In this document: one piece after another, positions 85 through 37,227 of the stretch
Numbering within the stretch: position 1 is the stretch's first letter
Layout: each line of letters starts with the position of its first letter
Notes under the pieces: generated by a model
The model's database searches: none
What the model saw: the letters and a program-made list of their open reading frames with translations, nothing else
Told to the model about the DNA's origin: nothing
Position numbers and translations under genes: made by a program
Assembly (NCBI GenBank): GCA_043816605.1
Contig: JBDRHR010000173.1
Coordinates: 1 to 48,895 of the forward strand
DNA from: Nitrospirota bacterium
GTDB taxonomy: Bacteria; UBA9089; CG2-30-40-21; SBAY01
Reading direction: 5' to 3'
Length of the DNA stretch: 48,895 nucleotides

Positions 85-537
85 TCAAAAAATTCGCATT
101 TTTTTGAATGAAAAAGTCCGATTCCCGGTGAACCAGCACAACCAGAATACATCCTCCCAATCTATTGGATATCTTTTTGTTATCTTTCCAAACTTGTCCA
201 AAAATAATAATTCGCATTCTGGAACTTTTCCTATCCCTTCTTCGCCTTTTTTTAATAAGACCACCTTTGGGTAACAGATTGACACAGACTGTTTTTTGCT
301 TTTTGTCATGAATTTACTCAAAGCAGGCATCTCCTTTGCCGTAAATTCTGCCTCTTCAAGGAAAAGAGGACTATATTCTACTTCCTCCTTCAACGCTTTA
401 GTTTTTTCCATTTCAGGATAAGGTCTTTGGTAGACAAGACTGAGTATCTCCTCCTTATCTTGAGCAAAACTAACTAAACTATAATAACCTACACAAACTA
501 AAACAACTACCAACCCTAAAAAAATCCTTTTTCTCAT
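85..537 (-). CDS. hypothetical exported small protein
   Basis: 150-aa ORF with a signal-like N-terminus (MRKRIFLGLVVVLVCVGYYSLVSFA). GGAGG sits about 10 nt upstream of the ATG. No family motif recognised. Confidence 0.5.
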   Translation of the reverse strand: MRKRIFLGLVVVLVCVGYYSLVSFAQDKEEILSLVYQRPYPEMEKTKALKEEVEYSPLFLEEAEFTAKEMPALSKFMTKSKKQSVSICYPKVVLLKKGEEGIGKVPECELLFLDKFGKITKRYPIDWEDVFWLCWFTGNRTFSFKKMRIF

Positions 538-1221: not shown

Positions 1222-4200
1222 TTATCTCGTAATAGCCATCTTACTTATCTTTTGCATTGTCTTACCGTTATAACTAACCGTTACCCGATAGAGGTAGATG
1301 CCACTGGCGATATTTTTATCTTCCCACACTACATCGGCTATTCCGGACACAGGATCTACCTCTTCCATTCCCCACTTTTCCCAGATTAATTCACCCACAA
1401 TATTATATACCGTTACCTGCATATCTACGCTAACCCCGTTAAGGAGGTTGGTTTTAGCACAGATAGTCGTTTTCCCGGAATGTGGATTAGGGTAGTTGAA
1501 TATCTCCAGAGACTCTAATGTTTGGGTAATCTCCGGGGAGGCGGGAGGTTTTGGTTTTACTATTGGACCCGACTTCTTTAATGTTGGAGTCCCTATGGCT
1601 AAAACTCCCATTGTATCTTTAGCCTCAAAGTAATATTTGTAATTATCACTTATAACTCCTAATTTTAAAATATAGTAATAAATCTTACCGGTTTTATAAT
1701 CAGTTCCAGATTCAACTACCATTTTGACATTTCCTACCGGGGTTTCATTATCAAGAATATAGATTTTAGGATAATTCGTTCCCGGTGCATCACCATCCTC
1801 ATCTTTATATCGGACTTTGAATGTAAAATATGTTTCATTAACAATCCCTTCCTCAGGGTCTAATCCATCCGTTTGAAAATTAGGACTACCTGCCCACTCC
1901 AATTTTGGGGCATGACTAACCTTTGGACCGGTTTTAAGTACGGTAAAAGGTCCCACTGCCACTGCCCCTTTAATATCTTTAGCATAGAATTTATACTTAT
2001 AAGTACCCGTAGCATTAAGGGTTATGGTTGTGGAGTAGGTAGCTCCTTTATAATGGCTTCCATTGAGATAAGTCATACTATAAGTTCCCAGTCCATAAGG
2101 TTTATTACCCTTAGAAATAACAACGGCTGGATACCCGGACGCCGGTAGATTAACATTCATATCCAAATAGGCTACATGGAAGGTAAAAATTCCAGGGGAT
2201 GCGGCATCAGGATTTACTCCATCGCTATAATATTCCTTCTCTCTAGTGGAAAATAAAAGAGGTGGATAATTTTGTCCCTCTACCTTTGGTCCAAAATGAA
2301 GTGTAGTCGGTTCACCTATTGCCAGCACATTATTACTATTTTTAGCCTCAAAATAATAACTATACGCCTCACTGGCATAAGGAAGGGAAATCTCATGAAA
2401 AGAATAGACCACCCCGGCAGAATAATTGCCTTCAGTTTCCTTTGTGAGGATATATCCAGGATAGATGAGCACACCTCCTATATAGATATAAATTTTTGGA
2501 TACCCGCCTGCCGGTGGAAGATTATTTACATCCGTATAGAGTATTTTATAAGTAAATTTATTCGTTGTTTGACCCGGGTCAGGATTAACCCCATCTGTCC
2601 CAAACCCCTCTTGATTTACCCAGTTTAAGGAAGGGGCATCATTTACCGATGGACCAGGTTTAACTGAGGTAATAACCGCAGACTGATACATATCCTTTGC
2701 CTCAAATTTATAGCTATATGTCCCTTCCGGAAAATTAGTTGAAAAGGTATATAACTTCCCATCGGTATAGGTTCCATCATTTAGGACAACTGGATTCATA
2801 AGAATAGGACTACCATTTGTCAGGGTTCCTCGAGAATAGATATATAATTTAGGGTAGCCTGTATGAGGTGGATGGTTATCTTTATCCACATATTTAATTC
2901 GGTAGGTATAGGTAATCTTTGTTGTCCCGTAATCAGGCTCAATACCATCATTGGTATATCCCAACTCACCTGTCCAGTTCAGGGTAGGTGGATTATTTAC
3001 AGGAGGTCCATCCATAAGTTGAATTTTACCAACCGCATCCATACCAGGCAAATCTTTCGCTATAAATTTATATTTGTAATCAAACCTGCTCTCCGCAAAT
3101 TGGAGCGGGTAATAATATAATTTACCATCTGTGTAAGTAATATCTTCTTCAGATACCTCACCCATGGCATAAGTACCTAAGACGGTCGTCCCTTTATAAA
3201 TAATTACCTTTGGATACCCATTTGCGGGAGAATTGTTATTATTATCAATATAATTTATTTTGTAAGTAAATATGGTTGCTGAATCACCTGAATCAGGATT
3301 GATACCATCGGTCCCAAACCCCGGCTCATTTACCCAGTCCAAAATAGGTGCATCGGTTACTACCGGCTTATTTTTAATGATGGTTGGTGTTCCCATAGCC
3401 TGAAGTTGGTAGCTATCCTTTGCCTCAAAGAAATACGAATAATTCCCAACCGGTAAATTAATTTCATATTTGTATATGCCGGCATTAATCGGGGTCATAC
3501 TAAACGAGCCGACAGGTGTCTGCCCCAGGTAAATATATAGTTTTGGAAAATTTTGAGCCGGCGGGTCATTATCCGCATCCTCGTATTTGACTTGATAGGT
3601 GAATTTAGTCCCTTGAGTCCCAAGTTCAGGGTCTATGCCGTCTTCAATAAATCCGGGGTTGCCACTCCAGGATAATACCGGTGTTCTACTTACATCAGGG
3701 GCATCCTTCTGCAAGGTAGGTGTTCCAGATGCCTTGATGCCATAAACATCCTCTGCCTCAAAGAAATAGGTGTAGTCCTTACCTGTGGCTTGAAATGTTT
3801 GCACAAAATAATAATCCTTACCATCCATACAGTTCTGGTCTGCTTGAGTTACCTCAAACATAGCAAAAGGACTTCCTGAAATTTCGGCACCTGCTTTGAG
3901 AATATGTAACTTTGGGAAACCTTGATATGGCAGGTCATTATTTGCATCAGAGTAGGTAACTTTATAGGTAAATTTAGTCCCCCAGGTGCCAAGTTCCGGG
4001 TGAAGACCATCGGTGCCATAATTTCCCTCCTGCACCCAATTTAATATCGGGGCATCTGTAACCACTGGTGCATTTGGTCTTAAGGTTATCGGTTCTTCCC
4101 CCACGGCAAAAACGCCAATAAAATCCTTTGCCTCAAAGAAATACTCATAATCCTTTCCTGTGGCAATTAGAACACGGGGATATTCATACTCCTTACCATC

Positions 4201-7200
4201 GGCATAGTTTGTATCCGCAGGAAGGGTTTCCAGCATCGGGAAAGGACTACCGTCGAGCTCTTTATTCGCCTTCAAGATATGTACCATAGGATACCCTGCT
4301 GCAGGTGGCTCGGTGTCGGTATAAAGGACTCGATAGACAAAAGAAGTCGTGGCAGACCCTGCCTCGGGGTTAAGTCCATCGGTGATATAACCGGGTTTAT
4401 TTACCCAACTTAACACCGGGGCTAAGGTTACCTTAGGTCCCTCTTTAATAAATGTTGGTGTCCCTGTAGCAGGCATCCCACGATTACTTTCTGCCGCAAA
4501 CCTATAAGTGTAAGTGCCAACTCCGAGGGATATAGAGCAGGAATATAATTTACCGTCCTCATAATTTGTATCCTGTGGATTCTCTTGAGCCATAGTCCAT
4601 GGGCTACCCTGTATTTCAGCCCCAACTTTAAAGATGTGTAGTCGTGGTGAATTTGTGCCCGGCGGGTCATTAGTAGAATTTATATACGAGATGCGATAGA
4701 CAAAACTCGTTCCCTGTGTCCCAAATTCAGGTTCTAACCCATCGCTCATATAACCAGGAGAGTCCTTTGCCCAGCTAAGTATTGGCTCACCGGTTACATT
4801 TGGTCCTGTAATAGCTGTTGTAGGCGTGCCTGCGGCATAAATTCCATAAGCATCCTTTGCCTCGAAATAATAGGAATACTCATTACTTGCGGCTATTAAC
4901 TTCCTGAAGAGTTGATATTCTTTGCCATCCTGATAATTTTTATCGTTCACATTCACCGGTTCAAGCGGGATTGGGCTGTCTTCTGTCTCAACCCCTTTTT
5001 TGAGGATATGTACCCTCGGATACCCTGCTGTAGGTGGGTCATTTTCATCATCCTGATATTTAACCTTATAAGTAAAGATTGTTTCAGCAGCTATACCGGT
5101 TTCCGGGTCTAACCCATCTGATTGAAAACTACCTGTCCCAATCCATTGTAATTGAGGTGGACTCCCAATCCTTGGACCTTGTTTAAAGGAAGTTGGTGCA
5201 GAGGGGAGACAATCCTCCTTTTTTATATCCTTTGCCTCAAACTTATACTTATAAATCCCATACTCTATTAGAGTAATCTTGTAACGATACAATGCCCCAG
5301 TAGAAAAACTACCATATTGCTTTTCCATCGTATAGGTGCCTATAAAACTTGTATCTTTATAAATATGAAGAAGTGGATAACCGAAATAAGGCTCATCACC
5401 ATTCAAATCTTTATAGACGATTAAATAAGTAAATTCTGTTCCTGATGTGCCAGCCTCAGGTTCTAATCCATCAGATATATATCCCGGCTGATTAGCCCAC
5501 ATCAGCATAGGTCTTGAGTTCTGGCCTGTAACCTCAGGTCCTGATTGAATAGCGGTCGGTGTCCCTTTTGCTACTTTACCTTGTCCATTTTTGGCTATAA
5601 AATAATAAGTGTATTTTGTGCTTGCTACAGGTAATCTTGTCGGATTTGTGTAATAGATTACCCCTTTCTGATAATCAGAGCCTGCTACTGGACGCATCAG
5701 AACACCATTTGGGTAGAAAGGAGATATTGCCCCCTCGATTAATATATATAGTTTGGGATAACCGGATGCCGGTGGAGAATTATTAACATCACTATATTTA
5801 ACTTTATAAGTAAAAAAGCCGGAAGTGATACCGATGTCCGGGTCAACCCCATCGTTTAAGTAAGGTTCCTGTCCAATCCATTCTAAAACAGGCTCACCAA
5901 TAAATAATGGTCCTATCTTTTTGGTTATTGGCTCCCCGGTAGCAAAAAAACCGGTTGTGTCCTGAGCGATGAATTGATATGAATAAGTGCCTGGCGAAGG
6001 TAGATATTTAGCCAGTTTATATTGTTTTCCATCGGTATAAGTAATATCCTGTGGATTTACCTCATCCATCTTAAATGGACTACCGGTAATTTTCACATTA
6101 TTAAGAAAAATATCCACCTTAGGAAAACCCTCTAAAGGCGGGTCGTTATCAAAGTCTGTATAATTAATTTTGTAAATAAATTCAGTGCCGATTGTACCCA
6201 GTGAAGGACTCACACCACTATTTGCATAATCTCCTTCCCCTACCCAACTCAAAGTAGGCACACTATTTACCTTGGGACCATCTAATACATTTACATGCTC
6301 TTCTATAGCCTGACTACCCTCGATATCCTCTGCCTCAAATCTATAACTATAACTGCCGGTTTCAACAAACACAATGGATGATTTATATAATTTACCGGTA
6401 ATAAAAGAACCTCCAGGATTAACGAGCGTCATAGCAAAAGGACTACCATTAATGCTACTGCCTGCCTTGAAAATATGTACCTTTGGCGAGCTGGTGCCGG
6501 GTGGGTCGTCATCTATATCCTTATACTTAATTAGAAAGGTAAATTCAGTTCCCGTAGTGCCTACATTTGGTTCAACTCCATCTTCAGTATAACCTGCCGA
6601 ACCTGCCCAGATTAAAACAGGGAAATTATTCACGATAGGTCCTGTCTGCCACTGCGTAGGGGTTCCAATAGCCTGAACACCATAAGTATCCTTTGCCTCA
6701 AATTTATAGGTATAGTTTATACTGTGGGACAGACAGGTAGAAAACTTATATTCTTTACCATCAATATAATTATTATCTTCAGGGGAAGCCTCATCCATCT
6801 TAAACGGGCTTCCTGAAATATTGATGCTATTCCACAGGATATAAACCCTTGGATATAAAGGTCCAGGTGGGTTATTATCCATATCCTTATATTCCACCTT
6901 GTAGGTGAATAGTGTATCCTTGGTGCCTGTGTCTGGTTTAACCCCGCAGGTTTGATATTCCAGTGTCCAGTTTAATATTGGGGCATTACTTACCCTTGGA
7001 CCAGATTGTTCCCACTGAGTAGGTTGACCTGTTGCCTTTGCCGCATAAATATTTTCAGCCTCAAATTTATAGGTATAACTTCCAGAGGGAAGTGAAAAGG
7101 CTATCCGATATATTTTACCATCCGTATAATAATCATCATAAATATCCTCTTCCTGCATCCCAAAGGAAATATAAGGTTGCTGATTTAAAAAGATATTGAC

Positions 7201-10200
7201 CTTTGGTGACCCTGTCCCTGGTGGGAAGTTACCTCGGTCAGTATAGATTATTCTGAATGTGAATTTAGTTCCTGGCGTGCCGACCTCAGGATTTAATCCA
7301 TCCATGATAAATTCATCCACACCTACCCAATATAAAGATGGGATAGAAACAACAGTCGGTCCTGAATGAAAAATAGTCGGACTACCGAAGGCATAAAGAC
7401 CACTTGTATTCTTAGCCTCAAATCGATAGGTGTATGTTCCCGGGAGGTTAAGTGGGTAAAAATACTCATAAACTTTACCATCAACATATTCTTTATCTTG
7501 AGGGTTTGCCTCAATCATCTGGGTATATAATACATCCTGACTGCCTTTCTGGATTTGTAATTTAGGAAATCCTGCAAGGGGGGGGTCGTTATCCTCATCA
7601 AAATAAATTATTCGATAAGTAAAGGTAGTGCCAACAATCCCAATCTCCGGCTCCAACCCATCATCAATAAATCCTTGTTGCCCAAACCACTCTAATTTTG
7701 GACTACCGCTAACCTTTGGTCCTGGCATAAAAGAAGAAGGAGGAAATAACACCTCTTCTCCTTCTTCGTCTTTGACTTTGAATTGGTATTGATACTGGTT
7801 TTTTTCCGGGAGGGAGGTAGAATAGGAATAAAGTGCCCCTTGAAGAAAATTCCCGGAAACAAAATTCATGGTTACGGTAGCCATCAAAACCATATTCTTG
7901 TAAATGTAAACTAATGGATAGTTATTGTCAGGATGGTCACCATTTATATCCTGATAGCGTATTTGATAAATAAATTTAGTTCCTAATGTGCCAACATCAG
8001 GGTCTATACCGTCTGAGATAAAACCTGAATTAGCCGACCAGAATAGTGTTGGTTTAAAATTAGGTCCATCAATTAGAGGTCCATCGTGTTCTAAAGTAGG
8101 TTCACCTATGGCGGTTATTTCTTTGATATTTTTTGCCTCAAAATAATAGGCATAGTGTTTAGAACCTATTGGAAATGTAGTTGGGAAGCTATAAGTAACC
8201 CCTGTCTTATAATCATTACCCTCTTTAATATACATCCATTGACCACCCGGAGATTGAGGTGCACCACCGCGTAGGATATACACCTTTGGATATTGATTTG
8301 CCGGGGGATTACCATCAGGGTCTATATAGAGCACCTTATAGGTAAAAGTAGTGTTCTGGATTGTGCCTGTGCCTGGATTAATCCCGTCATTTGTGTATTC
8401 TTGTGTGCCTGCCCATTTTAATATTGGTGAGCCAATTATTGAAGGTCCATTTTTAAGGAAAGTAGGTGCACCGGTTGCTTTATTATTAGAGGCGTCGTAA
8501 CCCTCGAAAAAGTATGAGTATGTGCCTATCTCTTGAAATGATATTGAATAGGTGAATAATTTCCCATCTTTATAATCGGTATCTTGCGGGTTAACCTCTT
8601 CTAATACAAATGCGCCAATTTCGTTGCCTCCCTTTAAGATATGAACTACGGGATAGTTTGGTAGTGGCGGCTCTCCATCCACATCCGTATAATTAACTCG
8701 ATAGGTAAAGGTTGTTTGAATATCACCTTGTTCAGGTTCAAGCCCGTCATTGACATAACCTTGCTCATAAGTCCAGGTCAGGGTAGGGATACTTCTAACT
8801 ACAGGAGATGAAGATATATTCGTTGGACTACCCATAGCCTTAATCATGAGATAATCATACGCCTCAAATTGATAGGTAAATGAACCTGCCTGGTCGAAAA
8901 TCTTAGTTAGTGTATATCCTTTACCATCATTATAGAGGACATCACCTGGATTTATTGGCTGCATCGGACAAGGGCTACCGGAGATTTCTTTGCCCTCTTT
9001 AAATATATGCACCACAGGATAGTAACTATGAGGAGGGTCGTTGTCAACATCTTTATAGATTATTTTATAAGTAAATGCTGTTAGATTCACGGTTCCTACC
9101 TCTGGCTCTAATCCATCAGATATATACCCCGGCTCATTGAGCCATTCCAGAATAGGGGCATTACTGACTATGGGTCCGGATTTCAAAGAGGTAAAGCACT
9201 GCAAATCTTTTTTATCCCTTGCCTCAAATTTATACTGATAAATACCGGTTGTTTTAACGGTATAAGTTGTACCATAAATAGCCCCTGAGGTAACTGACCC
9301 ATAAAAATAACTCATCGTCTTTGTTCCAATAAACACACCACTTTTATAGACATAGAGTATGGGGTATCCTTCCTTAGGTAGGTCCGCATTCAAATCGGAA
9401 TATTTAATCCGATAATTAAATGCTGTGTCAAAATTACCCGTCTCAGGTTCAAGACCATCTGAGACATACCCTTGATTACCAACCCAGAGGAGTCTTGGCG
9501 GATAGTTTAGACCAGTAACTAAGGGACCTGGTTGACTAATCGTAGGCGTGCCTATGGCAAAAACACTGAGTGTATTTTTAGCCTCAAAATAATAGGAATA
9601 ATAGTCGCTGGCAAAGATAAGGGGTAATTTAGCGACATAAATCATTCCAGTCACATAATCATTTCCACTTTCTTTAGACATTTTTGTCTGACTTACTACC
9701 TCTCCACCTCTGAGCACATACAATTTTGGATAATTTGAATCAGGTGGGATATTATCCTCATCGCTATATCGGACTTTATAAGTAAATATCGTCGTATTAA
9801 TGCCTGTGTTTGGCTCAATTCCCTCAGTTTTATATCCCTCTGCATCTACCCACTTTAACACAGGCGCCTTTGCCACGATAGGTCCTGTTTTAAGTTGAGT
9901 TGGCTCACCGGTTGCTATAAAATCATCTCTATCTTTAGCCTCAAATTGGTAATAGTATTTCCCCGCCATATTTAATGGAATTGAGAAGGTATAAATCTTC
10001 CCATCTATCCAATCAGTATCTTGAAGATTTCCCTCTTCCATAGAAAATGGGCTATTTTGTATCTGGTTAGTGCCTAAGTAAATATATACCCTCGGATACC
10101 CTTGTGCCGGTGGGATATTTTGAGGATGGGTAAAAGTTATTCGATAGGTAAATGTAGCTCCGAGATTACCTGCTTCCAGTTCAAGTCCATCTATTTTATA

Positions 10201-13200
10201 ACCTTGCTCATTAGTCCAGGTTAAAACAGGTATTTTCCCAACCCAGGGTCCAGAAGATGGTGTTGTCGGTGTTCCTTTAGCTTTAACCCCAAGGGTATCT
10301 TCTGCTTCAAAACAGTAGGTGTATGTTCCCGGCAAAGAAAAGGTTTTAAGATATTTGTAGAGTTTACCATCTGTATATTCCGTATCATTAGGGACAACCG
10401 CTTGCATTGGATAGGGACTACCACTTATCTCATTACCTGATTTAAGGATATGCAGTTTGGGGAAACCATTAGCCGGTGGAAAATTAGTCTCATGAAAATA
10501 TGCCACTTTGTAGGTAAATATCGTTTCATCCGAACCACGCTCCGGCTCTAAACCATCCTCAATACATCCTTCTTCGCCTGCCCACTTGAGTATTGGAGGT
10601 GGATGTGGCGTGGTAGTTATGGTAGCAATGGCAAGTACTGACTCATTACCCGCATCATCTATGGTTTTTAAGCCAAGGTAATAAAGGGTGGTTGGTTCTA
10701 ATCCGGTAATGGTAACCTGTCGAAAACTGCCTGCGACCGCAGATATGGGTTCATTATTTATTTGTTTGGCAGTAACCCAGGTATCCTCATTTATTACCCC
10801 CGTAGAATAGCGAATATCATACATCGTTGGCGTGCCTAATCGGTTATCATCACCTGCAGATAGCCAGAATAAAGTAGTTGAAATTGCGGTAGTGTTGGTC
10901 GCGGTCAGGGTCGTCGTTCCAGGTGGGATAATATCACGCGATAACTCCATGTATGGTGCCGGATTCCCATTGCTCGGGTGTATGGTTTGTGTATCTGTGC
11001 CTTCAAGTGCACCCTCGGCAAATAAATAAAGATTATCCTGAGCCGCAGTATAATCATCAAAAAATGATTGCAAATCAGCAGTTCTAAAATTAACCAGATT
11101 ATAAAGCCACTGTCCTTCTGTAACCAGAACTGATGCCCATGAAGAGGTGCCCAAATCACCTTGTTTATCCACATCTTGTAATTGAATATAGACAATTGCC
11201 CCGTCTGCATATTCTAATTTACCTTGTTTATATACCTCTCCCTGAACTAAACGGTTTTCAGGTTTTGGAATAATAGATGCCCCTGTTCTAACCGTATAAT
11301 GAAAGCCAGTATTGGTATCAAGAACACCACCACGGAGAACATCATAGTAATATAAGGTATTTACATTTAATCCGACAATGGTTACATGATGGGTATCGTC
11401 TATATAACCTATTCCCCTGTCGTCAAAGTTAGACTGATTTAAGGAATTAGGATTAGTGCCGTAATTGACCGTGCCTGACTCTTGTTTAGTTGATGTCCAG
11501 GAGATAGTGAACTGGGAGTCGGTGATATTCGTCTCACAATATGAGATACCGCTAACTATGGGTCCTTGTTGAATAACGGTAGCCGTGCCTGAGGCATCGG
11601 TAGCAAAAAATCGGTAAGAATATGTGCCTGGAGTAGAAAGAAATCGGGAAAATTTATATACTGCACCCGTAGCATAAGTCCCTTGGACATACGACATAGA
11701 ATGTGTTCCGACAGACTGCCCATCTTTATAAATAATTACTCCTGGCGAACTTGTCCCGGGTGCATCATTATCTAAATCAATATATTTCACCTTGAAGGTG
11801 AACGCCATATCAATATTACCGGAGTCAGGATAAACACCATCTTTGAGATACTCCCCTTCACCTACCCAGTCGAGGGTAGGGTTATGTTTCATTTCAGGTG
11901 TAGTTGAGCCTTCAACCACCCCGGACAACTCCGACATATTCCACACCTCGTCAATTGTCTTTAATCCAAAATAGTAAGTAGATGCCGGACTTAACCCTTC
12001 AACAGTAAGTTCCTGCCAATTGCCGGCAGATAATGGTACAGGTTCTAATTTAATTTCTTGCGTCATTCCCCAGAGCGTTTCTGTCCAAGAAAACTGGGCA
12101 TATCTAAAGTCATAAATTGAGGCTATGCCAAGATTTTTATCATCTCCAGTTGCTTGCCACTTTAATGTGATTGAACCAACCCCTGCCTTTATTACTTGTA
12201 AGGTAGTAATTGACGCAGGGGCAATTACATCCCGGCAAAGCTCTATGGGTAATGCGGGCGAGTCATTTGCTGTAAGAACTATTTCACTTCCAATTCCTTC
12301 CTCAACACCCTGAACAAATAAATAAAGTTCATCCGTCGTAGAGGAATAGTTAAATTGTGAGGCTAAATCTATGGTTCTAAAATTGACTAAATCCGCCATC
12401 CAGTAACCATTCTCCTGGACTAATGCCGAGGCTGGGGCTGAGGTAAGCAGACTACCCTGTCCATCATTATCCTTTAATTCAAGATAGACAAGGGCATCCT
12501 TCGCCACGGATTGTCCACCTTGTTTGAGTACCGCTCCATAAACTATGTCACTACCGGAGCTAATGAATGACTTGCCTGTCCGGAGGGTATAATGATTGCC
12601 GGAATTATCATCAGTAATCCCACCTGAGACGACATCAAAATAATAGACTGTTTCCGGGCTCAACCCCTTAACCGTTACATGGTGTGTTCTACCGCTAAAT
12701 CCTGCCCCACGGTCATCATCCCATTTCATATTTACTGCTTGTGCGTTTATCCCATATTTCACATAGCCTGTTACCGATGATGAAGTTATCCATGAAACCG
12801 TAAATTGGCTATCTGTTTGATTGGTTACACGCACACCGTTATCTATATCCGCAACTATTGGTCCTTTAGTTAAGGATGTAGGTTCACCTTCTGCCCCCTG
12901 AGTATAGAATTGATAACTATACTCCCCGTTTTCCTGAAAAACCTTTGAGTAGGTATAAATTGCCCCAGTAGTAAAAGAGCCTTTGACATAAGTCGTCGAG
13001 TAAGTTCCAAGAGATGTTGCCCCTTTATAAAGGATGATTTTCGGCTCTCCTTTTGGCGGCGGAAGATTCTGCGGGTGGGTGTACTTGACCATATAGACAA
13101 AGTTAGTGCCTGAGGTGCCCAAGTCTAATCTCAAACTATCTTTGACAAAATTATTCTCACCTGTCCAGGATAACATTGAATTAGGTGCCGGTGAGGTTTT

Positions 13201-14208
13201 AGCAGAAACAACATTGGATAAGTCCGACCAATTACCCGCCTTATCACGGGTTTTAATTGCCAGATAGTAAAGTGTATTGGGTGAAAGCGTTGGGACTTGA
13301 AATTCCTGTTGAGTTCCGGCAAGTAAAGGTGCGGGTTCTCCTTGAACCTGGAAGGCATTCCCAAAATTACCTTCAGTTATTGGTGATAATGACCATCGAA
13401 TATCGTATAAAAATGCCTGTCCCTGATTTCCATCATCGCCTGGTGTAATCCATTTTAAGGTAATTGAATTAGAGGTAACTTGTTTGATTTCAAGGGTATT
13501 AATACTTGAGGGTTTGATATGGTCGGTAGAAAGGATTATATCCGGTGCGGGTGAGTCCTGGTTAGTATCCACGGTTAAGGTAGCAGTCCCATCTTTTGAG
13601 CCCTGGGCAAATAAAACAAGGTTATCTCCACCATTGACAGAATAGTCAAAAAATCCACTCAGGTCGTGCGTCCTCAGGTTAACCAGGTTTTCTGACCAAT
13701 AACCATTAGCGTCAACCAGAACAGACCAAACCGCAGATTCCCCAGGACTACCGTTTGAATCCGCATTACTAAGTTTAAAATAAACAATTGTTCCTGTAGC
13801 AAAAGTTTGGGCATCTGATTTAAATACCTTCCCGTAGGCATAATCAATTCCGGAAGGTTTAATATTTGCTCCAGTCATACACTGATAATACACACCATTA
13901 TTGTTATCAACTATAGCTCCTGAGACTAACTCAAAATAATATAAGGTTTCAGGGCTTAATCCGGTGATATTTACATAATGTGTGTCGTCAACCGTGTTTT
14001 GACCACGCACATCATAAGCGGTTTGCCCTAAGGCAGGGGTTTGTCCATAATGGACCGCACAGGTTTCCTGAACATCTGTTATCCAGGACAGAGTAATCTG
14101 GCTATCCGTAACATTTGTTGTTCGTATCTCCTTAGGAATACTTGCCTCCGTTATGCAGGTTATTCCAAAGGTAATTATAAATATGCCGGCAAAAAAACTT
14201 TTCTTCAT
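1222..14208 (-). CDS. giant secreted modular surface protein (4,328 aa) with FN3-type domains, a ~120-aa repeat array and a T9SS-type C-terminal domain
   Basis: Uninterrupted 12,987-nt ORF. AGGAAG Shine-Dalgarno about 6 nt before the ATG. Signal peptide MKKSFFAGIFIITFGITCITEA. Coherent repeated domain architecture throughout. C-terminus matches the Por secretion tail pattern. Confidence 0.95.
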   Translation of the reverse strand: MKKSFFAGIFIITFGITCITEASIPKEIRTTNVTDSQITLSWITDVQETCAVHYGQTPALGQTAYDVRGQNTVDDTHYVNITGLSPETLYYFELVSGAIVDNNNGVYYQCMTGANIKPSGIDYAYGKVFKSDAQTFATGTIVYFKLSNADSNGSPGESAVWSVLVDANGYWSENLVNLRTHDLSGFFDYSVNGGDNLVLFAQGSKDGTATLTVDTNQDSPAPDIILSTDHIKPSSINTLEIKQVTSNSITLKWITPGDDGNQGQAFLYDIRWSLSPITEGNFGNAFQVQGEPAPLLAGTQQEFQVPTLSPNTLYYLAIKTRDKAGNWSDLSNVVSAKTSPAPNSMLSWTGENNFVKDSLRLDLGTSGTNFVYMVKYTHPQNLPPPKGEPKIILYKGATSLGTYSTTYVKGSFTTGAIYTYSKVFQENGEYSYQFYTQGAEGEPTSLTKGPIVADIDNGVRVTNQTDSQFTVSWITSSSVTGYVKYGINAQAVNMKWDDDRGAGFSGRTHHVTVKGLSPETVYYFDVVSGGITDDNSGNHYTLRTGKSFISSGSDIVYGAVLKQGGQSVAKDALVYLELKDNDGQGSLLTSAPASALVQENGYWMADLVNFRTIDLASQFNYSSTTDELYLFVQGVEEGIGSEIVLTANDSPALPIELCRDVIAPASITTLQVIKAGVGSITLKWQATGDDKNLGIASIYDFRYAQFSWTETLWGMTQEIKLEPVPLSAGNWQELTVEGLSPASTYYFGLKTIDEVWNMSELSGVVEGSTTPEMKHNPTLDWVGEGEYLKDGVYPDSGNIDMAFTFKVKYIDLDNDAPGTSSPGVIIYKDGQSVGTHSMSYVQGTYATGAVYKFSRFLSTPGTYSYRFFATDASGTATVIQQGPIVSGISYCETNITDSQFTISWTSTKQESGTVNYGTNPNSLNQSNFDDRGIGYIDDTHHVTIVGLNVNTLYYYDVLRGGVLDTNTGFHYTVRTGASIIPKPENRLVQGEVYKQGKLEYADGAIVYIQLQDVDKQGDLGTSSWASVLVTEGQWLYNLVNFRTADLQSFFDDYTAAQDNLYLFAEGALEGTDTQTIHPSNGNPAPYMELSRDIIPPGTTTLTATNTTAISTTLFWLSAGDDNRLGTPTMYDIRYSTGVINEDTWVTAKQINNEPISAVAGSFRQVTITGLEPTTLYYLGLKTIDDAGNESVLAIATITTTPHPPPILKWAGEEGCIEDGLEPERGSDETIFTYKVAYFHETNFPPANGFPKLHILKSGNEISGSPYPMQAVVPNDTEYTDGKLYKYLKTFSLPGTYTYCFEAEDTLGVKAKGTPTTPSSGPWVGKIPVLTWTNEQGYKIDGLELEAGNLGATFTYRITFTHPQNIPPAQGYPRVYIYLGTNQIQNSPFSMEEGNLQDTDWIDGKIYTFSIPLNMAGKYYYQFEAKDRDDFIATGEPTQLKTGPIVAKAPVLKWVDAEGYKTEGIEPNTGINTTIFTYKVRYSDEDNIPPDSNYPKLYVLRGGEVVSQTKMSKESGNDYVTGMIYVAKLPLIFASDYYSYYFEAKNTLSVFAIGTPTISQPGPLVTGLNYPPRLLWVGNQGYVSDGLEPETGNFDTAFNYRIKYSDLNADLPKEGYPILYVYKSGVFIGTKTMSYFYGSVTSGAIYGTTYTVKTTGIYQYKFEARDKKDLQCFTSLKSGPIVSNAPILEWLNEPGYISDGLEPEVGTVNLTAFTYKIIYKDVDNDPPHSYYPVVHIFKEGKEISGSPCPMQPINPGDVLYNDGKGYTLTKIFDQAGSFTYQFEAYDYLMIKAMGSPTNISSSPVVRSIPTLTWTYEQGYVNDGLEPEQGDIQTTFTYRVNYTDVDGEPPLPNYPVVHILKGGNEIGAFVLEEVNPQDTDYKDGKLFTYSISFQEIGTYSYFFEGYDASNNKATGAPTFLKNGPSIIGSPILKWAGTQEYTNDGINPGTGTIQNTTFTYKVLYIDPDGNPPANQYPKVYILRGGAPQSPGGQWMYIKEGNDYKTGVTYSFPTTFPIGSKHYAYYFEAKNIKEITAIGEPTLEHDGPLIDGPNFKPTLFWSANSGFISDGIDPDVGTLGTKFIYQIRYQDINGDHPDNNYPLVYIYKNMVLMATVTMNFVSGNFLQGALYSYSTSLPEKNQYQYQFKVKDEEGEEVLFPPSSFMPGPKVSGSPKLEWFGQQGFIDDGLEPEIGIVGTTFTYRIIYFDEDNDPPLAGFPKLQIQKGSQDVLYTQMIEANPQDKEYVDGKVYEYFYPLNLPGTYTYRFEAKNTSGLYAFGSPTIFHSGPTVVSIPSLYWVGVDEFIMDGLNPEVGTPGTKFTFRIIYTDRGNFPPGTGSPKVNIFLNQQPYISFGMQEEDIYDDYYTDGKIYRIAFSLPSGSYTYKFEAENIYAAKATGQPTQWEQSGPRVSNAPILNWTLEYQTCGVKPDTGTKDTLFTYKVEYKDMDNNPPGPLYPRVYILWNSINISGSPFKMDEASPEDNNYIDGKEYKFSTCLSHSINYTYKFEAKDTYGVQAIGTPTQWQTGPIVNNFPVLIWAGSAGYTEDGVEPNVGTTGTEFTFLIKYKDIDDDPPGTSSPKVHIFKAGSSINGSPFAMTLVNPGGSFITGKLYKSSIVFVETGSYSYRFEAEDIEGSQAIEEHVNVLDGPKVNSVPTLSWVGEGDYANSGVSPSLGTIGTEFIYKINYTDFDNDPPLEGFPKVDIFLNNVKITGSPFKMDEVNPQDITYTDGKQYKLAKYLPSPGTYSYQFIAQDTTGFFATGEPITKKIGPLFIGEPVLEWIGQEPYLNDGVDPDIGITSGFFTYKVKYSDVNNSPPASGYPKLYILIEGAISPFYPNGVLMRPVAGSDYQKGVIYYTNPTRLPVASTKYTYYFIAKNGQGKVAKGTPTAIQSGPEVTGQNSRPMLMWANQPGYISDGLEPEAGTSGTEFTYLIVYKDLNGDEPYFGYPLLHIYKDTSFIGTYTMEKQYGSFSTGALYRYKITLIEYGIYKYKFEAKDIKKEDCLPSAPTSFKQGPRIGSPPQLQWIGTGSFQSDGLDPETGIAAETIFTYKVKYQDDENDPPTAGYPRVHILKKGVETEDSPIPLEPVNVNDKNYQDGKEYQLFRKLIAASNEYSYYFEAKDAYGIYAAGTPTTAITGPNVTGEPILSWAKDSPGYMSDGLEPEFGTQGTSFVYRISYINSTNDPPGTNSPRLHIFKVGAEIQGSPWTMAQENPQDTNYEDGKLYSCSISLGVGTYTYRFAAESNRGMPATGTPTFIKEGPKVTLAPVLSWVNKPGYITDGLNPEAGSATTSFVYRVLYTDTEPPAAGYPMVHILKANKELDGSPFPMLETLPADTNYADGKEYEYPRVLIATGKDYEYFFEAKDFIGVFAVGEEPITLRPNAPVVTDAPILNWVQEGNYGTDGLHPELGTWGTKFTYKVTYSDANNDLPYQGFPKLHILKAGAEISGSPFAMFEVTQADQNCMDGKDYYFVQTFQATGKDYTYFFEAEDVYGIKASGTPTLQKDAPDVSRTPVLSWSGNPGFIEDGIDPELGTQGTKFTYQVKYEDADNDPPAQNFPKLYIYLGQTPVGSFSMTPINAGIYKYEINLPVGNYSYFFEAKDSYQLQAMGTPTIIKNKPVVTDAPILDWVNEPGFGTDGINPDSGDSATIFTYKINYIDNNNNSPANGYPKVIIYKGTTVLGTYAMGEVSEEDITYTDGKLYYYPLQFAESRFDYKYKFIAKDLPGMDAVGKIQLMDGPPVNNPPTLNWTGELGYTNDGIEPDYGTTKITYTYRIKYVDKDNHPPHTGYPKLYIYSRGTLTNGSPILMNPVVLNDGTYTDGKLYTFSTNFPEGTYSYKFEAKDMYQSAVITSVKPGPSVNDAPSLNWVNQEGFGTDGVNPDPGQTTNKFTYKILYTDVNNLPPAGGYPKIYIYIGGVLIYPGYILTKETEGNYSAGVVYSFHEISLPYASEAYSYYFEAKNSNNVLAIGEPTTLHFGPKVEGQNYPPLLFSTREKEYYSDGVNPDAASPGIFTFHVAYLDMNVNLPASGYPAVVISKGNKPYGLGTYSMTYLNGSHYKGATYSTTITLNATGTYKYKFYAKDIKGAVAVGPFTVLKTGPKVSHAPKLEWAGSPNFQTDGLDPEEGIVNETYFTFKVRYKDEDGDAPGTNYPKIYILDNETPVGNVKMVVESGTDYKTGKIYYYILKLGVISDNYKYYFEAKDTMGVLAIGTPTLKKSGPIVKPKPPASPEITQTLESLEIFNYPNPHSGKTTICAKTNLLNGVSVDMQVTVYNIVGELIWEKWGMEEVDPVSGIADVVWEDKNIASGIYLYRVTVSYNGKTMQKISKMAITR
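1225..1509 (-). other. T9SS type-A-like C-terminal sorting domain (Por secretion tail / FlgD-Ig-like) of the giant protein
   Basis: The last ~95 aa read ..FNYPNPHSGKTTI..VTVYNIVGELIW..WEDKNIASGIYLYRVTVSYNGKTMQKISKMAITR. This fits the YPNPF..IYN..G..V...SGIY.YR....K..K consensus as remembered for TIGR04183-type tails. Confidence 0.7.
1510..10602 (-). repeat. coding tandem array: 25 diverged copies of a ~120-aa domain
   Basis: Recurrent pattern P.L.W.G..GY..DG..P..G...T.FTY.V.Y.D.D.DPP...YP.V.I......GSP..M......D..Y.DGK.Y......G.Y.Y.FEAKD..G..A.G.PT, counted 25 times from about residue 1203 to about residue 4235. Confidence 0.85.
10603..14118 (-). repeat. coding super-repeats: three ~430-aa units
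   Basis: Units start at about residue 31 (TNVTDSQITLSW), 461 (VTNQTDSQFTVSW) and 892 (ETNITDSQFTISW). Each contains a purple-acid-phosphatase-N/FN3-like module, a beta-sandwich-like module, an FN3 module (..GDD.N.G....YDIRYS..) and one ~120-aa domain. Confidence 0.8.
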
Positions 14209-18694: not shown

Positions 18695-19756
18695 TTACTT
18701 AGGATGCCTTTCGAAGAATTGCCACATCAACTCTGAAGCAAAAATATCCGTATTGAGTTTTCCCACCTGTCTTTCCGGCAATGAGGATTTACCACCCGGC
18801 CAGGTGTGACCACCATCCTCCAATGTCCACAAAATCACCTCAGAACCTTCCTTCCCATGACCATAAATGGTACAGACTGCCTTTCCTATTCGAGATCCTT
18901 TCACAGGTTCTTTGGGACATCCATTATGAGTAACCCAAAACTGGATAGTTTCTGGGACACTTCGGCGTGAAATCTTTTCAAATGCCTTTGGACCAACGCC
19001 ACCATTGAAAACCACATTTGGGTCTGCTTTTCCATGAAAGTGAATAATCGAAACAGGACTATTTGACTTACAGGTAGAAGGTTCTACACCCAAAACTCCA
19101 CTTACAGGTGCAAAAGCAGCAATCCTATCGGAAAGTTCCATAGCCAGTCGATAGCACATAAATGCCCCATTTGAGAAACCAGAAGCATATATCCGTTTTT
19201 TGTCAATATGGAAAAGTGTTTCAAGGTCATCCAACAATGCCTTTGTAAAACCCACATCATCTATATCATTTTCTTTAGCATAACCACAACAAACTCCCGC
19301 ATTATATGTAAGGAGCTTATCCTCAGATTCCCCTGTTCCGGCAGGATAAACAACGATAAACTCATGCGTATCACTAACTGTATCCATTTGTGAATCATTG
19401 CGTTGTTGAGCCGGATTGCCACCTCCGCCATGAAAGACTAAAACAACCGGCGTAGATTTTTCCTTATTATACTTTCGAGGAATGTGCAGGTCATAAAATC
19501 GTTTTCTGCCATCAAATTCTAAATACCTCCGATAATCCCCTCCTCCATATTGAGACTGAGTATAGGAAGAGAATTTTCCCTCAATTAGAGGATAAAAAGG
19601 ACCCTTTGAACTTTTTTCTTCCATCCTTTCTTTCATTCTTTCCTTTATTCTGTCTCTCATATTCCCTCCTTCTGTATATTTTACTGTTAATCCTATCACC
19701 AACAAACACCCAATAGCTATTAATATCTTTTCAAGATACCTTTTCTGTGTAAACAT
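18695..19756 (-). CDS. PHB-depolymerase-family (LpqC/CE1-type) secreted esterase
   Basis: VVLVFHGGGGNP, YNAGVCCGYA, nucleophile elbow GFSNGAFM, and an N-terminal membrane/signal segment. Confidence 0.75.
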   Translation of the reverse strand: MFTQKRYLEKILIAIGCLLVIGLTVKYTEGGNMRDRIKERMKERMEEKSSKGPFYPLIEGKFSSYTQSQYGGGDYRRYLEFDGRKRFYDLHIPRKYNKEKSTPVVLVFHGGGGNPAQQRNDSQMDTVSDTHEFIVVYPAGTGESEDKLLTYNAGVCCGYAKENDIDDVGFTKALLDDLETLFHIDKKRIYASGFSNGAFMCYRLAMELSDRIAAFAPVSGVLGVEPSTCKSNSPVSIIHFHGKADPNVVFNGGVGPKAFEKISRRSVPETIQFWVTHNGCPKEPVKGSRIGKAVCTIYGHGKEGSEVILWTLEDGGHTWPGGKSSLPERQVGKLNTDIFASELMWQFFERHPK

Positions 19757-19914: not shown

Positions 19915-20847
19915 TTACTGGGCATCAAACCTAAAGGTAATAGAAAGTCGGTGGGTGTTACCTAATTCATCATAGGGGACAAAGGCATAGTCTATTTGGT
20001 AGTGTTTAATCGTGAAACCAAACCCACCGGTAATTCCGGTACCTAAGTCTTTAAATACCTGTGAATTAAATCCACCTCGCAGGGCGAGCAACTGCTTAAA
20101 CCATAATTCCATGCCAAGATTCATTTTCCAGTCATTATCTGTTGGTTTAGTTAAATCACAGGTGATAGTCAACGGTTGGACTCCAAGTCGATAGGCACTA
20201 CCTAATTTAAGTGTTAATGGTAATTTATCCCCTTCACTTGAAAATTTTATTCTCGGACCTACATTTTGGAGTACCGTAGATAAAGTTAAACCATCAATAG
20301 GAGTTTGATACAATTGTCCTAAGTCAATTGCAAATGAAGATGCCTCCTCGTTCTCTATTTTTTGAACAATACCCTTGATAGTCATTCCAATTGATATAGC
20401 CTCGGTTATAGCTGAGGCATAGGTAAAAGCAAAGGCAGTATCCCGGACTGAGAAATTACCCGTACTTTCGGGTTGTGACTTCACATCACCATCTTTATAC
20501 CCGGGAATATTACCTACCCCTAAATGGATGACACTAAAACCAATTGCCTTTTTCCTTGAGGTAGGCACCCCAAAGCCGAGAAATCCATGCCCCACCCCTT
20601 CAAACCAATCATTGTACATCATGGATATTTCAGGTTTGGTAATCTGGACAAGACCCGCTGGATTCCAGTAGACCGCGGTAATATCATCGGCTAATGCCGA
20701 GAAAGCCTCACCCATAGCTACGGCTTTAGCCCCCACACCTATCTTTAAAAATGGCGCACCGGCAGTTCCAGGAGATGTCTTTGCCCAACAATTACTTACT
20801 ATTGAAAACATCACTAAGCAATTTATTAAAACTAATTTATGCCTCAT
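19915..20847 (-). CDS. PorV/PorQ-family outer-membrane beta-barrel protein
   Basis: Motif GAPFLKIGVGAKAVAMGEAFSALADDITAVYWNPAGL and a beta-barrel-like C-terminus ending ..RLSITFRF. Start placed at the ATG at 20847 (MRHKLVLINCLVMF.. signal peptide with GGGAGA Shine-Dalgarno). The longer ORF start at 20871 lies inside a repeat hairpin. Confidence 0.7.
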   Translation of the reverse strand: MRHKLVLINCLVMFSIVSNCWAKTSPGTAGAPFLKIGVGAKAVAMGEAFSALADDITAVYWNPAGLVQITKPEISMMYNDWFEGVGHGFLGFGVPTSRKKAIGFSVIHLGVGNIPGYKDGDVKSQPESTGNFSVRDTAFAFTYASAITEAISIGMTIKGIVQKIENEEASSFAIDLGQLYQTPIDGLTLSTVLQNVGPRIKFSSEGDKLPLTLKLGSAYRLGVQPLTITCDLTKPTDNDWKMNLGMELWFKQLLALRGGFNSQVFKDLGTGITGGFGFTIKHYQIDYAFVPYDELGNTHRLSITFRFDAQ

Positions 20848-20864
20848 CTCTTTCTCCCTTACCG

Positions 20865-21009
20865 TAAGCATTTAGCTATCAGGTATCATGGTTCGACAGG
20901 ACTTCAGCGTGAGCTCAGTCGAACGCTCACCATGACAAAATGTCACCCTGAGTTTGTCCGAAGGGTGATGGTTTTTGCTGACTGCTGATACCTGATTACT
21001 GACTGCTTA
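20865..21009. repeat. compound hairpin with a GC-richer REP-like core
   Basis: Outer arm taagcatttagctatcaggtatca pairs with tgatacctgattactgactgcttaa. Inner stems are ggttcgac..gtcgaac, catgg..ccatg and tcaccct..agggtga. Confidence 0.65.
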
Positions 21010-29432: not shown

Positions 29433-30938
29433 TTATTTAGTATGTACATCATACGCATTTAAAAACTCATTCCATTGAGTATCGACAGCAAAGTTAGTAT
29501 TGGCATAGTCAGGAGAAGAACCGGTTGTTGGAAAATATATGGAAATCCCATGGGCCCCTGGATGTCCTGAATAATGAGCCTCGGCAATTACATCATTATT
29601 AATAGCATTGCCAAGGGCAAGAACCGCAGATTTAACTACCGGACTTGTAACTCTATTGTAAATTTCCTCGCCAAAATCATACAGGTCAGGATAACCCACA
29701 TCCTCTGTTGCTAATCGTGCCGCTTTAATATTAGCCCATTCTCCACAGGCTATCATAGCCATAGCAAAATTACTTACGGCGGTAGCTAAATTATCAAGGG
29801 CTAAGGTAGTATTTACCGCAGAGAATGTTACAAACGGCTCCACCCCAAGATAAGAATCAATGTAATGTTTAACCGTAATTGAGCCTAAAAAGGTAGCGTC
29901 CATACCTGGATTATTCACTAAATCTGTTAGAATCGTATCATAAGGCCAACCATCCCATGGTTCTACTTCTTGAGATGCCGCCAGTACCTCTGACGAAGCC
30001 TTTGTTTCATAAGCCACCTCAATCATCCCCATCAAGCAGGCATCATAACCTAAAAGATTCATCATCTTTCCGGACAAGGCAGTTTCTACCTCATCATAGT
30101 GTAAATAACTGTTATTTGTTACATCTATGCAGACAGTTTTTATAGCCTGTTCCTGCCCTAATTTTTTAAGTATGCCGCCTCCGTGATTCCAAAGGACTAA
30201 GGCATATTTATTCGCCGGATAATTTATCATTGCCCATTCAACAAAATCCTTTAAGGTTTGGTCATCTCCCATATCTGCCTCACCTATATCCGCTAAGGCA
30301 TTTGCCGGTGTAGGTGTCATATCCTGTTGAATATGAAATCTCTTGGTAGAAGTCCAATTCCCATACTGAGAATCATATCCTGGAATGCGGTCAAATTGAA
30401 CGACTATATTTACATTATCGCTTGAGCCAACCTGCGCCATTTCAAGGAAATCTTCAATCCCTGCATCCTCTAAGTCATTATCAGCCGCAATATAAACTAA
30501 ATATGTCCATTCTTTCTTAGCCATAGTACCAAAGGTAAAGGGTACAAAATCCTCACTTAAATTATCCCCGGTAATATTATTTAATAATCTTGCTCCCAGC
30601 TTGTAATTACCCTGTGGTTCAACTCCCCCAAATGTGTACTGGAATATATTTCCTTGAAAGTTAAAATTTGCGGGTAATTGAAACGCCGGTAGATTATAAA
30701 TTGAAATTAACCCACCGGGTGCAGGACATTCTACCCAATTCTTTATATCCACAACCTGAGTTTGGTTGGTGTTATTCCAAAGATGGACACCTTCTATTAA
30801 GGTATCCCCTATGTTATAACTTGCCTGATTAGTAGATATATCTATATGAGCAGGAGGTATAGACGCATTAACCCTTGATACTGCCATAAACCACCCTAAA
30901 GCTACTACCCCTAAAATAACACTTACTTTTTTAAACAT
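29433..30938 (-). CDS. secreted clostripain-family (C11, clan CD) cysteine peptidase
   Basis: EWTYLVYIAADNDLE block. Catalytic His context LVLWNHGGG. Catalytic Cys context LGYDACLMGM. Signal peptide present. Confidence 0.8.
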   Translation of the reverse strand: MFKKVSVILGVVALGWFMAVSRVNASIPPAHIDISTNQASYNIGDTLIEGVHLWNNTNQTQVVDIKNWVECPAPGGLISIYNLPAFQLPANFNFQGNIFQYTFGGVEPQGNYKLGARLLNNITGDNLSEDFVPFTFGTMAKKEWTYLVYIAADNDLEDAGIEDFLEMAQVGSSDNVNIVVQFDRIPGYDSQYGNWTSTKRFHIQQDMTPTPANALADIGEADMGDDQTLKDFVEWAMINYPANKYALVLWNHGGGILKKLGQEQAIKTVCIDVTNNSYLHYDEVETALSGKMMNLLGYDACLMGMIEVAYETKASSEVLAASQEVEPWDGWPYDTILTDLVNNPGMDATFLGSITVKHYIDSYLGVEPFVTFSAVNTTLALDNLATAVSNFAMAMIACGEWANIKAARLATEDVGYPDLYDFGEEIYNRVTSPVVKSAVLALGNAINNDVIAEAHYSGHPGAHGISIYFPTTGSSPDYANTNFAVDTQWNEFLNAYDVHTK

Positions 30939-36495: not shown

Positions 36496-36573
36496 ATCAT
36501 CCCCCATCAAGTAATTGTCATCTAATTGTTATATGAAGTTTTACAACATTTTTTCTTTTGTTAGCCGTGTTTT

Positions 36574-36849
36574 TTAAGCAGTCATCAGTTCTACTATAGG
36601 TTTAACTAATCTGGACTTTCTTGCTGGAGCAAGCCTTTTTACCCTCACAAACACCATTGGTTGATTTTTCTCTCTCCTTGCTCTTGCCATTTTAAGATTT
36701 TCTTCTGCCAATTTCTGGTCATACTCAGGCAGAATTACAATTATTGCCTCTTTAGGTATACACTTCGTAACTTCAGGATGTTCCAAAATATACCTGCTAA
36801 ATTCTGTCGTCAATACTAAATTTTTCTCAAACAATTCCTTTTTATTCAT
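36574..36849 (-). CDS. small uncharacterised protein (91 aa), downstream member of an overlapping pair
   Basis: Its ATG overlaps the stop of 36846..37160 (ATGA). From memory the sequence (..EHPEVTKCIPKEAIIVILPEYDQKLAEENLKMARARREKNQPMVFVRV..) resembles DUF5647-type proteins. Unverified. Confidence 0.6.
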   Translation of the reverse strand: MNKKELFEKNLVLTTEFSRYILEHPEVTKCIPKEAIIVILPEYDQKLAEENLKMARARREKNQPMVFVRVKRLAPARKSRLVKPIVELMTA

Positions 36850-37160: not shown

Positions 37161-37227
37161 TTCTTTGCTTTTGCCTCAATTTTACCCTAATATACACTTA
37201 TTTTTACCAAGGGTTCTATTCTCCCCT

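Follow-up and report, generated by a model that had tools for sequence, protein, structure and literature searches.

Does a giant repeat protein that ends in a type IX secretion system (T9SS) sorting tail leave the cell by such a system in an organism outside Bacteroidota, and which components would carry it? The question arises from contig JBDRHR010000173.1 of assembly GCA_043816605.1, whose 48,895 nucleotides form the stretch analysed here (the window). The gene concerned occupies positions 1222..14208 on the minus strand as an uninterrupted open reading frame (ORF) of 4328 amino acids (aa). It belongs to a metagenome-assembled genome (MAG; G000) of 2.62 Mb in 250 contigs, of which the window is contig C173, with 37.6% GC and 93.6% completeness. 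A preliminary description, made from the letters of the window alone, had drawn attention to the tail, to three PorV/PorQ-like beta-barrels and to the lack of core T9SS genes nearby. We conclude that the giant protein is an ordinary T9SS-type surface cargo of a divergent, little-described variant of the system. The finding is real but largely explained, as the tail and the first of the barrels are already recognised by curated models. At the level of the lineage, the interest lies in a divergent T9SS variant, possibly without a motor, in which carrier barrels paired to individual cargoes have greatly multiplied.

The tail, a T9SS type-A C-terminal sorting domain (CTD), lies at 1240..1494 on the minus strand and corresponds to residues ~4239-4323 of 4328 (~85 residues), the match ending five residues before the stop. 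Compared with TIGR04183 (Por_Secre_tail, NCBIfam), the 159 C-terminal residues scored 31.4 bits against a cut-off of 23, over profile positions 2-71 of 72, and a whole-genome scan with the same model returned the tail at 31.6 bits. The C-terminus (...ASGIYLYRV...KMAITR) is typical of type-A tails. Since TIGR04183 scores above its curated cut-off, covers nearly the whole profile and matches at the extreme C-terminus, the initial observation of a Por secretion tail is confirmed; the profile search, which the preliminary description had named as a point where the reading might fail, gave a match above the curated threshold. On this evidence we read the tail as a genuine T9SS type-A sorting domain and predict that export depends on it. 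For the last 100 aa, an AlphaFold model made from an alignment of 45 tails from other loci reached a predicted local distance difference test (pLDDT) value of 94.2 and forms a beta-sandwich of seven strands, a modelled fold that is consistent with a T9SS CTD but not discriminating. The CTDs of the giant protein and of two other proteins of the genome (on contigs C67 and C98) also touch the type-B profile CHU_C (PF13585), with 30 bits on the C67 cargo (cut-off 27) and 19-20 bits on the other two; judged by these profiles, the CTDs of this lineage appear to sit between type A and type B.

The remainder of the protein is that of a secreted repeat protein in its layout. A predicted Sec signal peptide, MKKSFFAGIFIITFGITCITEA, is encoded at 14143..14208 (minus strand) and was recognised by eye in the translation as a hydrophobic N-terminus. 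Three modules of FN3/PurAcPhosph_N type follow in the N-terminal part (Pfam fn3, Pur_ac_phosph_N and Por_Secre_tail were matched on the protein), and the body after them is an array of ~27 copies of an unclassified domain of ~115 aa. A collinear ortholog of 4089 aa with 61% identity and a CTD of its own is encoded in a related MAG (locus L124, G009:C55, 1047-13316), so the giant repeat protein is conserved at the family level and is no assembly artefact.

Whether the organism holds the machinery for such a tail had to be asked of the whole genome. Profile scans of the window matched no PorK/L/M/N, SprA or PorU gene, as previously described, and the genome's own CTD profile matches the giant protein only among the window ORFs. 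The absence of core genes is not, however, a property of the organism, since a SprA-like protein and a C25 peptidase with a CTD are encoded on other contigs. The first, on contig C85, has 1988 aa and matches the SprA/Sov model TIGR04189 with 166.8 bits (E 4e-49); its sole relative in the PDB is SprA (6H3I_A, E 1.5e-14), and by sequence we take it to be a SprA homolog below the equivalog threshold. The second, an 817-aa protein on contig C98, contains a C25 propeptide, a Peptidase_C25 domain (200.7 bits) and also a CTD. On the PorU model it reaches 83 bits, where the cut-off is 420, and phmmer found no PDB relative. In a sister MAG (G001), its 64% identical ortholog has a PorV-family gene 38 bp behind it, which makes a porU-porV arrangement in miniature; here no barrel stands behind the C98 gene. 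Another C25 peptidase, on contig C140, lacks a CTD. Altogether ~26 ORFs of the genome carry the same tail, each 0-10 residues from the C-terminus, and 18 are above the TIGR04183 cut-off. PorV-family barrel genes number 15, made up of 12 above the cut-off of the family model NF033709, two of the window barrels (barrels 2 and 3, described below) and one on contig C243; a gene on contig C61 was left out of the count as a true FadL (Toluene_X, 147.7 bits).

Several of these barrels carry additional domains. The protein at C162:286-2454 (722 aa in total) continues into C-terminal TPR repeats, and that at C92:8465-9706 (413 aa) into a C-terminal SH3_3 domain. In many relatives the barrel match is likewise surrounded by open frames of 440-720 aa, so that fused barrels are seemingly common in the phylum.

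The gene order links barrels to cargoes. Seven of the 15 barrel genes stand on the same strand as, and within 1 kb downstream of, a gene with a CTD (on contigs C67, C52, C30, C74 and C116, and twice on C250), an arrangement with a binomial probability of ~1e-10 given ~26 CTD genes among ~2400 genes. The cargoes upstream of these barrels are surface proteins of FG-GAP, DUF11, Big_13 and fn3 type, not PorU. The pair on contig C30 has a peculiarity: the PorV-family gene (C30:7449-8373) that directly follows an fn3+CTD cargo gene is broken into two overlapping ORFs (216 and 115 aa), through a frameshift that makes it a pseudogene or through an error of assembly. Small ORFs found between cargo and barrel genes (C116, C74, C146 and the related locus L066) were considered as a third component and rejected, as they turned out to be a nucleotidyltransferase family. 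These MNT-type ORFs (GSYAKG...SDIDL; ~105-140 aa) have ~30 copies in the 2.6-Mb genome, for example C243:14539-14856 and C116:8462-8884, and several lie between CTD cargo and barrel genes; a further member is at L066:1893-2210. The family looks like a proliferating toxin-antitoxin-type element of the HEPN/MNT class, unrelated to secretion.

The same pairing is found well beyond this genome. When species-representative genomes were scanned with the barrel alignment, the matches comprised 80 loci with 83 barrel genes, from Poribacteria, Elusimicrobiota, Aerophobetes, Desantisbacteria, Zixibacteria, FCPU426, Sumerlaeota, Saganbacteria, KSB1, Marinimicrobia, Ignavibacteria and Bacteroidota as well as from many unclassified MAGs. 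A CTD cargo other than PorU stands just upstream of 30 of the 83 barrel genes, at a median gap of 23.5 bp, and a PorU-like gene upstream of 23, which is the classic porU-porV operon; four barrel genes have a CTD cargo just downstream, and 26 have neither PorU nor a cargo. Pairs of cargo and barrel recur in Elusimicrobiota, Aerophobetes, Zixibacteria, Sumerlaeota and Saganbacteria. A maximum-likelihood tree unites the PorU-linked barrels in a single clade (SH-aLRT support 99, 31 tips), from which all paralogs of this genome are absent. Together, these data suggest that the PorV-like paralogs are cargo-specific, as far as gene neighbourhood and sequence can tell. The preliminary description had raised such specialisation as a possibility; it fits the seven barrels that follow a CTD cargo and does not extend to the window, where no barrel is linked to the giant gene.

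The companions of the barrels also differ from one lineage to the next. Of 25 genomes with these barrels, 24 also have SprA-like ORFs. PorV-family matches occur in all 21 genomes sampled from the phylum (12 genera), with 2-36 matches each, so that the expansion extends across the phylum; 20 genomes have 8-36, and the least complete one has 2. Canonical SprA (>680 bits) and canonical PorU (>750 bits) occur together in Bacteroidota, Rhodothermota, Ignavibacteria, KSB1 and Zixibacteria. Marinimicrobia combine a canonical SprA with an intermediate PorU (~300 bits), and in Poribacteria PorU is likewise intermediate. This genome and its kin have only a divergent SprA-like ORF (~2000 aa) and the short C25+CTD protein. 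As the SprA-like, PorU-like and PorV-like proteins are all far from the canonical clades, they point to a system that differs as a whole. The organism itself is, from its protein sequences, clearly outside Bacteroidota, as had been supposed, and not evidently in the Fibrobacteres-Chlorobi-Bacteroidetes (FCB) group. Homologs of its Der protein with >60% identity all come from MAGs that NCBI leaves unclassified as 'bacterium', and the next best (~49%) are from Firmicutes. Close homologs of Der and of the barrels bear the same 'bacterium' label, with one 'Candidatus Desantisbacteria' at 47-68% identity, and the flanking proteins share 57-68% identity with their counterparts in a MAG that bears the label Candidatus Desantisbacteria.

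The three barrels of the window are not equivalent. Barrel 1 (19915..20871, minus strand) is a PorV/PorQ-family outer-membrane barrel and a candidate carrier, with 207.1 bits on NF033709 (PorV_fam, cut-off 90). Since it stays below the cut-offs of both PorQ (NF033711; 138 bits against 220) and PorV (NF033710; 91 bits against 250), it is neither a PorV nor a PorQ equivalog. Its sole PDB relative is PorV of F. johnsoniae (6H3I_F, E 8e-10), and no record was returned when its exact sequence was looked up in public assemblies. The phylogeny that had been recommended for the barrels was built, and places barrel 1 outside the PorU-linked clade as sister to a cargo-linked barrel. No cargo gene adjoins barrel 1, and the barrel nearest to it elsewhere, at L066, comes after another CTD cargo. 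Next to barrel 1 on its downstream side, the gene at 18695..19756 passes the NCBIfam cut-off for the catalytic domain of an extracellular type-1 short-chain-length polyhydroxyalkanoate (PHA) depolymerase (165.9 bits, cut-off 150); its product has an N-terminal membrane or signal segment and no CTD.

Barrels 2 (35512..36510) and 3 (37228..38226), both on the minus strand, are tandem paralogs with 41% identity to each other, and their NF033709 scores of 55.0 and 54.5 bits are below 90. They align with barrel 1 over the full length at 24-26% identity (E 6e-13 for barrel 2 and 1e-15 for barrel 3), and with the genome's true FadL on C61 over the N-terminal 35-65 residues only. Barrel 3 also scores 31.9 bits on Pfam TraF_2. 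Its AlphaFold model (pLDDT 89.5) gave FadL (2r89) and PorV (8gl6_F) tied by E-value in Foldseek, and the best TM-score among the top-ranked matches was 0.61, to PorV 6h3i_F. Because the scores are below the cut-off, the homology to barrel 1 covers the full length and the fold is that of FadL and PorV, the two proteins are best filed as distant relatives of the PorV/PorQ family rather than as members. Their sequences suggest a separate distant subfamily of the PorV/FadL superfamily, to which no cargo is assigned. In relatives the corresponding orthologs lie side by side and bear the annotation 'TraF' or 'hypothetical'. In the window a DUF7718 gene and a small overlapping ORF stand between them (within 35512..38226), and this cassette is an insertion, since the locus tags of the two barrel genes are consecutive in relatives.

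These results change how the barrels should be named. The signature G.(R/K)..(A/G)MG.AF.A.ADD....YWNPAG, on which all three had been called PorV/PorQ-like, is also present in the bona fide FadL/Toluene_X protein on C61, as CVRPLTMGGAFVGLADDWSAVIWNPAGL, and is thus an N-terminal motif of the FadL superfamily that is not specific to PorV. For annotation, this means that the 'YWNPAG' motif cannot be used to call PorV. The original description of three PorV/PorQ-like proteins therefore holds in full for barrel 1, which is a PorV/PorQ-family protein, and not for barrels 2 and 3, which should be named neither PorV nor TraF. As to the concern that the barrels might belong to an unrelated outer-membrane family such as FadL, motif and fold are common to the superfamily, barrel 1 is a true member of PorV_fam, and the other two are its full-length homologs.

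The surroundings of the giant gene provide no direct partner for it. On its downstream side lie a convergent helix-turn-helix gene, an orphan ORF of 150 aa (85..537) with no family match and no paralog, and then the contig end. A cut-off barrel gene was sought past this end, and no overlap of the left end with other contig ends was found (k = 21-55). On the upstream side, barrel 1 is 5.7 kb away with four housekeeping genes in between. Since these genes intervene and the relative of barrel 1 follows another cargo, their location in one window is not evidence of partnership. The giant protein is an 'orphan' cargo, without an adjacent barrel, and barrel 1 as its carrier is plausible but unproven.

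Taken together, the parts allow a route to be outlined. The giant protein would cross the inner membrane through Sec, and its CTD would be recognised at the outer membrane by the divergent SprA/Sov-like translocon and taken up there by a 14-strand barrel of the PorV/PorQ family. The barrel would carry the protein out of the translocon and would probably retain it on the cell surface. Barrels encoded beside a cargo are presumed to serve that cargo as cognate carriers or anchors, in the way that PorQ serves PorZ, PorV serves PorU and SprF serves SprB. The outline follows the model of the Bacteroidota system, in which substrates bind the loops of the PorV carrier inside SprA and leave together with it (PMC10994853); PorU and PorZ are retained on the surface via PorV and PorQ, with PorU keeping its CTD to sit on PorV (PMC5562754); and cognate PorP/SprF barrels serve as anchors for type-B cargo (PMC9143113). 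The closest statement that we found is in a review, which puts forward the hypothesis that CTDs are shielded from cleavage by cognate PorV-like barrels (PMC10202324). The explanation as a whole, in which type-A CTD cargo, a SprA-like translocon and PorV-family carriers make up a divergent T9SS-like system, is in our judgement probably correct.

A number of observations weigh against this explanation. No dedicated barrel adjoins the giant gene in the window, and the gene of the 4089-aa ortholog has recQ next to it and no barrel on its contig. The score of the C85 protein is below the curated cut-off of 200, and the C98 protein could simply be a secreted gingipain-like protease. On the giant tail, Pfam PF18962 reaches 26.7 bits, marginally below the gathering cut-off of 27, and a Foldseek search of the PDB with the CTD model listed generic Ig-like folds only, with no T9SS CTD structure on top. 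Lastly, the proposed pathway lacks a known power source, since the searches turned up neither GldL, GldM or GldN nor a true GldK.

The Foldseek result would also suit a quite different reading, in which the tail is a structural Ig-like domain of FlgD_ig type, the barrels are FadL-type channels for small molecules, and no CTD-directed export takes place. Pfam FlgD_ig indeed matches several tails of the genome, the fold of barrel 3 matches FadL as well as PorV, and true FadL shares the N-terminal motif. A structural domain does not readily account for a tail that is always at the extreme C-terminus of proteins with signal peptides and that passes a curated T9SS cut-off in 18 of them, nor for the coupling of tail genes to PorV-family barrels far above chance, the co-occurrence of SprA-like ORFs with these barrels, or the fact that the porU-porV operon is one case of the same arrangement of cargo and barrel genes. 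We consider this reading very unlikely.

The missing power source raises another alternative, namely that the organism has a complete orthodox T9SS, including PorK/L/M/N, whose genes escaped notice through the incompleteness of the MAG or through divergence. In Bacteroidota the energy chain (GldL/M/N and GldK) is required for release of the carrier-substrate complex (PMC10994853). GldM was not found in profile searches of the genome, and jackhmmer searches that started from the GldK/L/M/N proteins of a Vicingus operon did not find GldL, GldM or GldN. Nor was a true GldK (PorK) found, the matches being FGE-sulfatase domains in NTPase-type proteins of 905-993 aa or in a 247-aa protein. The whole-genome search for core components that the preliminary description had suggested thus succeeded for the SprA-like protein, the C25+CTD protein, the tails and the barrels, and came back empty for GldL/M/N and true PorK. 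In a control set of 25 genomes, the GldM and GldK models (TIGR03517, PF12081, TIGR03525) matched a single Flavobacteriales genome, so that non-detection is weak. These detectors are narrow, because they missed genomes of Ignavibacteria, Rhodothermales, KSB1 and Zixibacteria in which SprA and PorU are canonical, and with one match in 25 controls the absence of PorKLMN is not a conclusion that can be drawn. Genes lost from view would also fit an assembly as fragmented as this one. Against an orthodox system stand four independent searches of the genome without a motor or ring component, the sulfatase-type nature of the GldK matches, and the distance of the SprA, PorU-like and PorV-like proteins from the canonical clades. 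We therefore regard an orthodox T9SS as unlikely, and favour the divergent T9SS-like system.

A CTD-cleaving sortase for that system had been sought within the window. The C11 (clostripain-family) peptidase at 29433..30938 on the minus strand (PF03415, 147.5 bits) was suggested as a replacement for PorU, and it is indeed a clan-CD cysteine peptidase with a signal peptide in a genome that has no canonical PorU. It has no CTD, unlike PorU (PMC5562754), and is not next to any barrel, CTD gene or SprA. Moreover, the genome has two C25 peptidases, one of them with a CTD of the retained type, related to PorU and kept in relatives, where a PorV-family gene follows its ortholog in the sister genome. 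On these grounds the C11 peptidase was rejected as a PorU substitute and placed outside the system; that it acts as the sortase is exceedingly improbable.

The distribution of the parts invites a broader proposal, which we put forward tentatively and are inclined to doubt. The phylum as a whole may use a minimal type IX-like pathway, made up of a divergent SprA and one private PorV-type barrel per cargo as carrier or anchor, without the PorLM motor, the PorKN ring or canonical attachment through PorU and anionic lipopolysaccharide (A-LPS), and the pathway would probably also be found in Elusimicrobiota, Aerophobetes and other groups outside FCB. If so, the motor and the hub would be an addition on the Bacteroidota side, the pair of translocon and carrier would be the ancestral core, and release of the carrier would draw on another source of power. 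A deep lineage with massive expansion of carriers, encoded beside individual cargoes, does have the cargo tag, the carrier family and a homolog of the translocon, and no detectable motor. Should the proposal hold, these bacteria would offer a natural system for the minimal part set of type IX transport and for how the specificity between carrier and cargo is coded.

The rest of the window encodes PhoH-PIN, Der, a class IV aminotransferase, the PHA-depolymerase-type esterase, a fused M16 pair, a TadA/VirB11-type ATPase, an aminoacyl-tRNA synthetase, the C11 peptidase, PurH, NikR, a PP-loop ATPase, PFK, an LptD-like protein, glycosyltransferases and an M6 peptidase. The C11, M16, M6 and esterase proteins each begin with a hydrophobic leader and bear no tail, in agreement with the earlier remark that the other putative secreted hydrolases lack one. 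The M16 protein (21248..23848, 866 aa) is a fusion of a YfmH-like and a YfmF-like half, a pair that NCBIfam associates with the 5-aminopentanol modification of EF-P, and it may not be a secreted hydrolase in the sense first meant.

Reviews describe the T9SS as a machine of Bacteroidota or the FCB group that needs the PorLM/PorKN energy chain (PMC11205867, PMC10994853). In a literature search that covered T9SS or PorV in Elusimicrobia, Poribacteria and Zixibacteria and PorV-like paralogs beside type-A cargo, we found no paper on gene pairs of type-A cargo and PorV-family barrel, or on such a system outside the FCB group. The system outlined here resembles the Bacteroidota T9SS of F. johnsoniae and P. 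gingivalis (PDB 6H3I, 8GL6) in the type-A CTD that ends Sec-exported surface proteins, the SprA homolog, the FadL-type barrels of the PorV/PorQ family and the C25 peptidase with its own CTD. It differs in its weaker SprA-like match (167 bits against the cut-off of 200), in the lack of a canonical PorU and of any member of the PorU-linked PorV clade, in the non-detection of GldL/M/N and true PorK, and in having 15 barrels instead of PorV and PorQ. FadL/TodX channels, which admit hydrophobic substrates, share the 14-strand fold and the N-terminal motif G.R...G.A..A.DD....NPAG with these barrels. However, a true FadL has ~430 aa and a clear Toluene_X match, as the C61 protein does, whereas the window barrels have ~320-330 aa and score 14-21 bits on Toluene_X and 55-207 bits on PorV_fam.

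Closer in arrangement are SprB-SprF and the pairs of type-B CTD and PorP-like proteins, in which many paralogous FadL-family barrels likewise stand beside specific, often giant and repetitive surface proteins (PMC9143113) and are proposed to be both carrier and anchor. Their barrels are of the PorP/SprF family (TIGR03519) and their tails are of type B, whereas here the barrels are of the PorV/PorQ family and the tails score as type A, with some that touch the type-B profile as well. In the attachment complex of P. gingivalis, PorQ holds PorZ and PorV holds PorU on the surface, each a dedicated PorV/PorQ-family barrel for a CTD protein whose tail is retained (PMC5562754). The partners in our lineage are adhesin-like (FG-GAP, DUF11, Big_13, fn3) rather than parts of the machinery, and their binding is inferred from gene order; that order, with the CTD protein first and the barrel second, is the same as in porU-porV.

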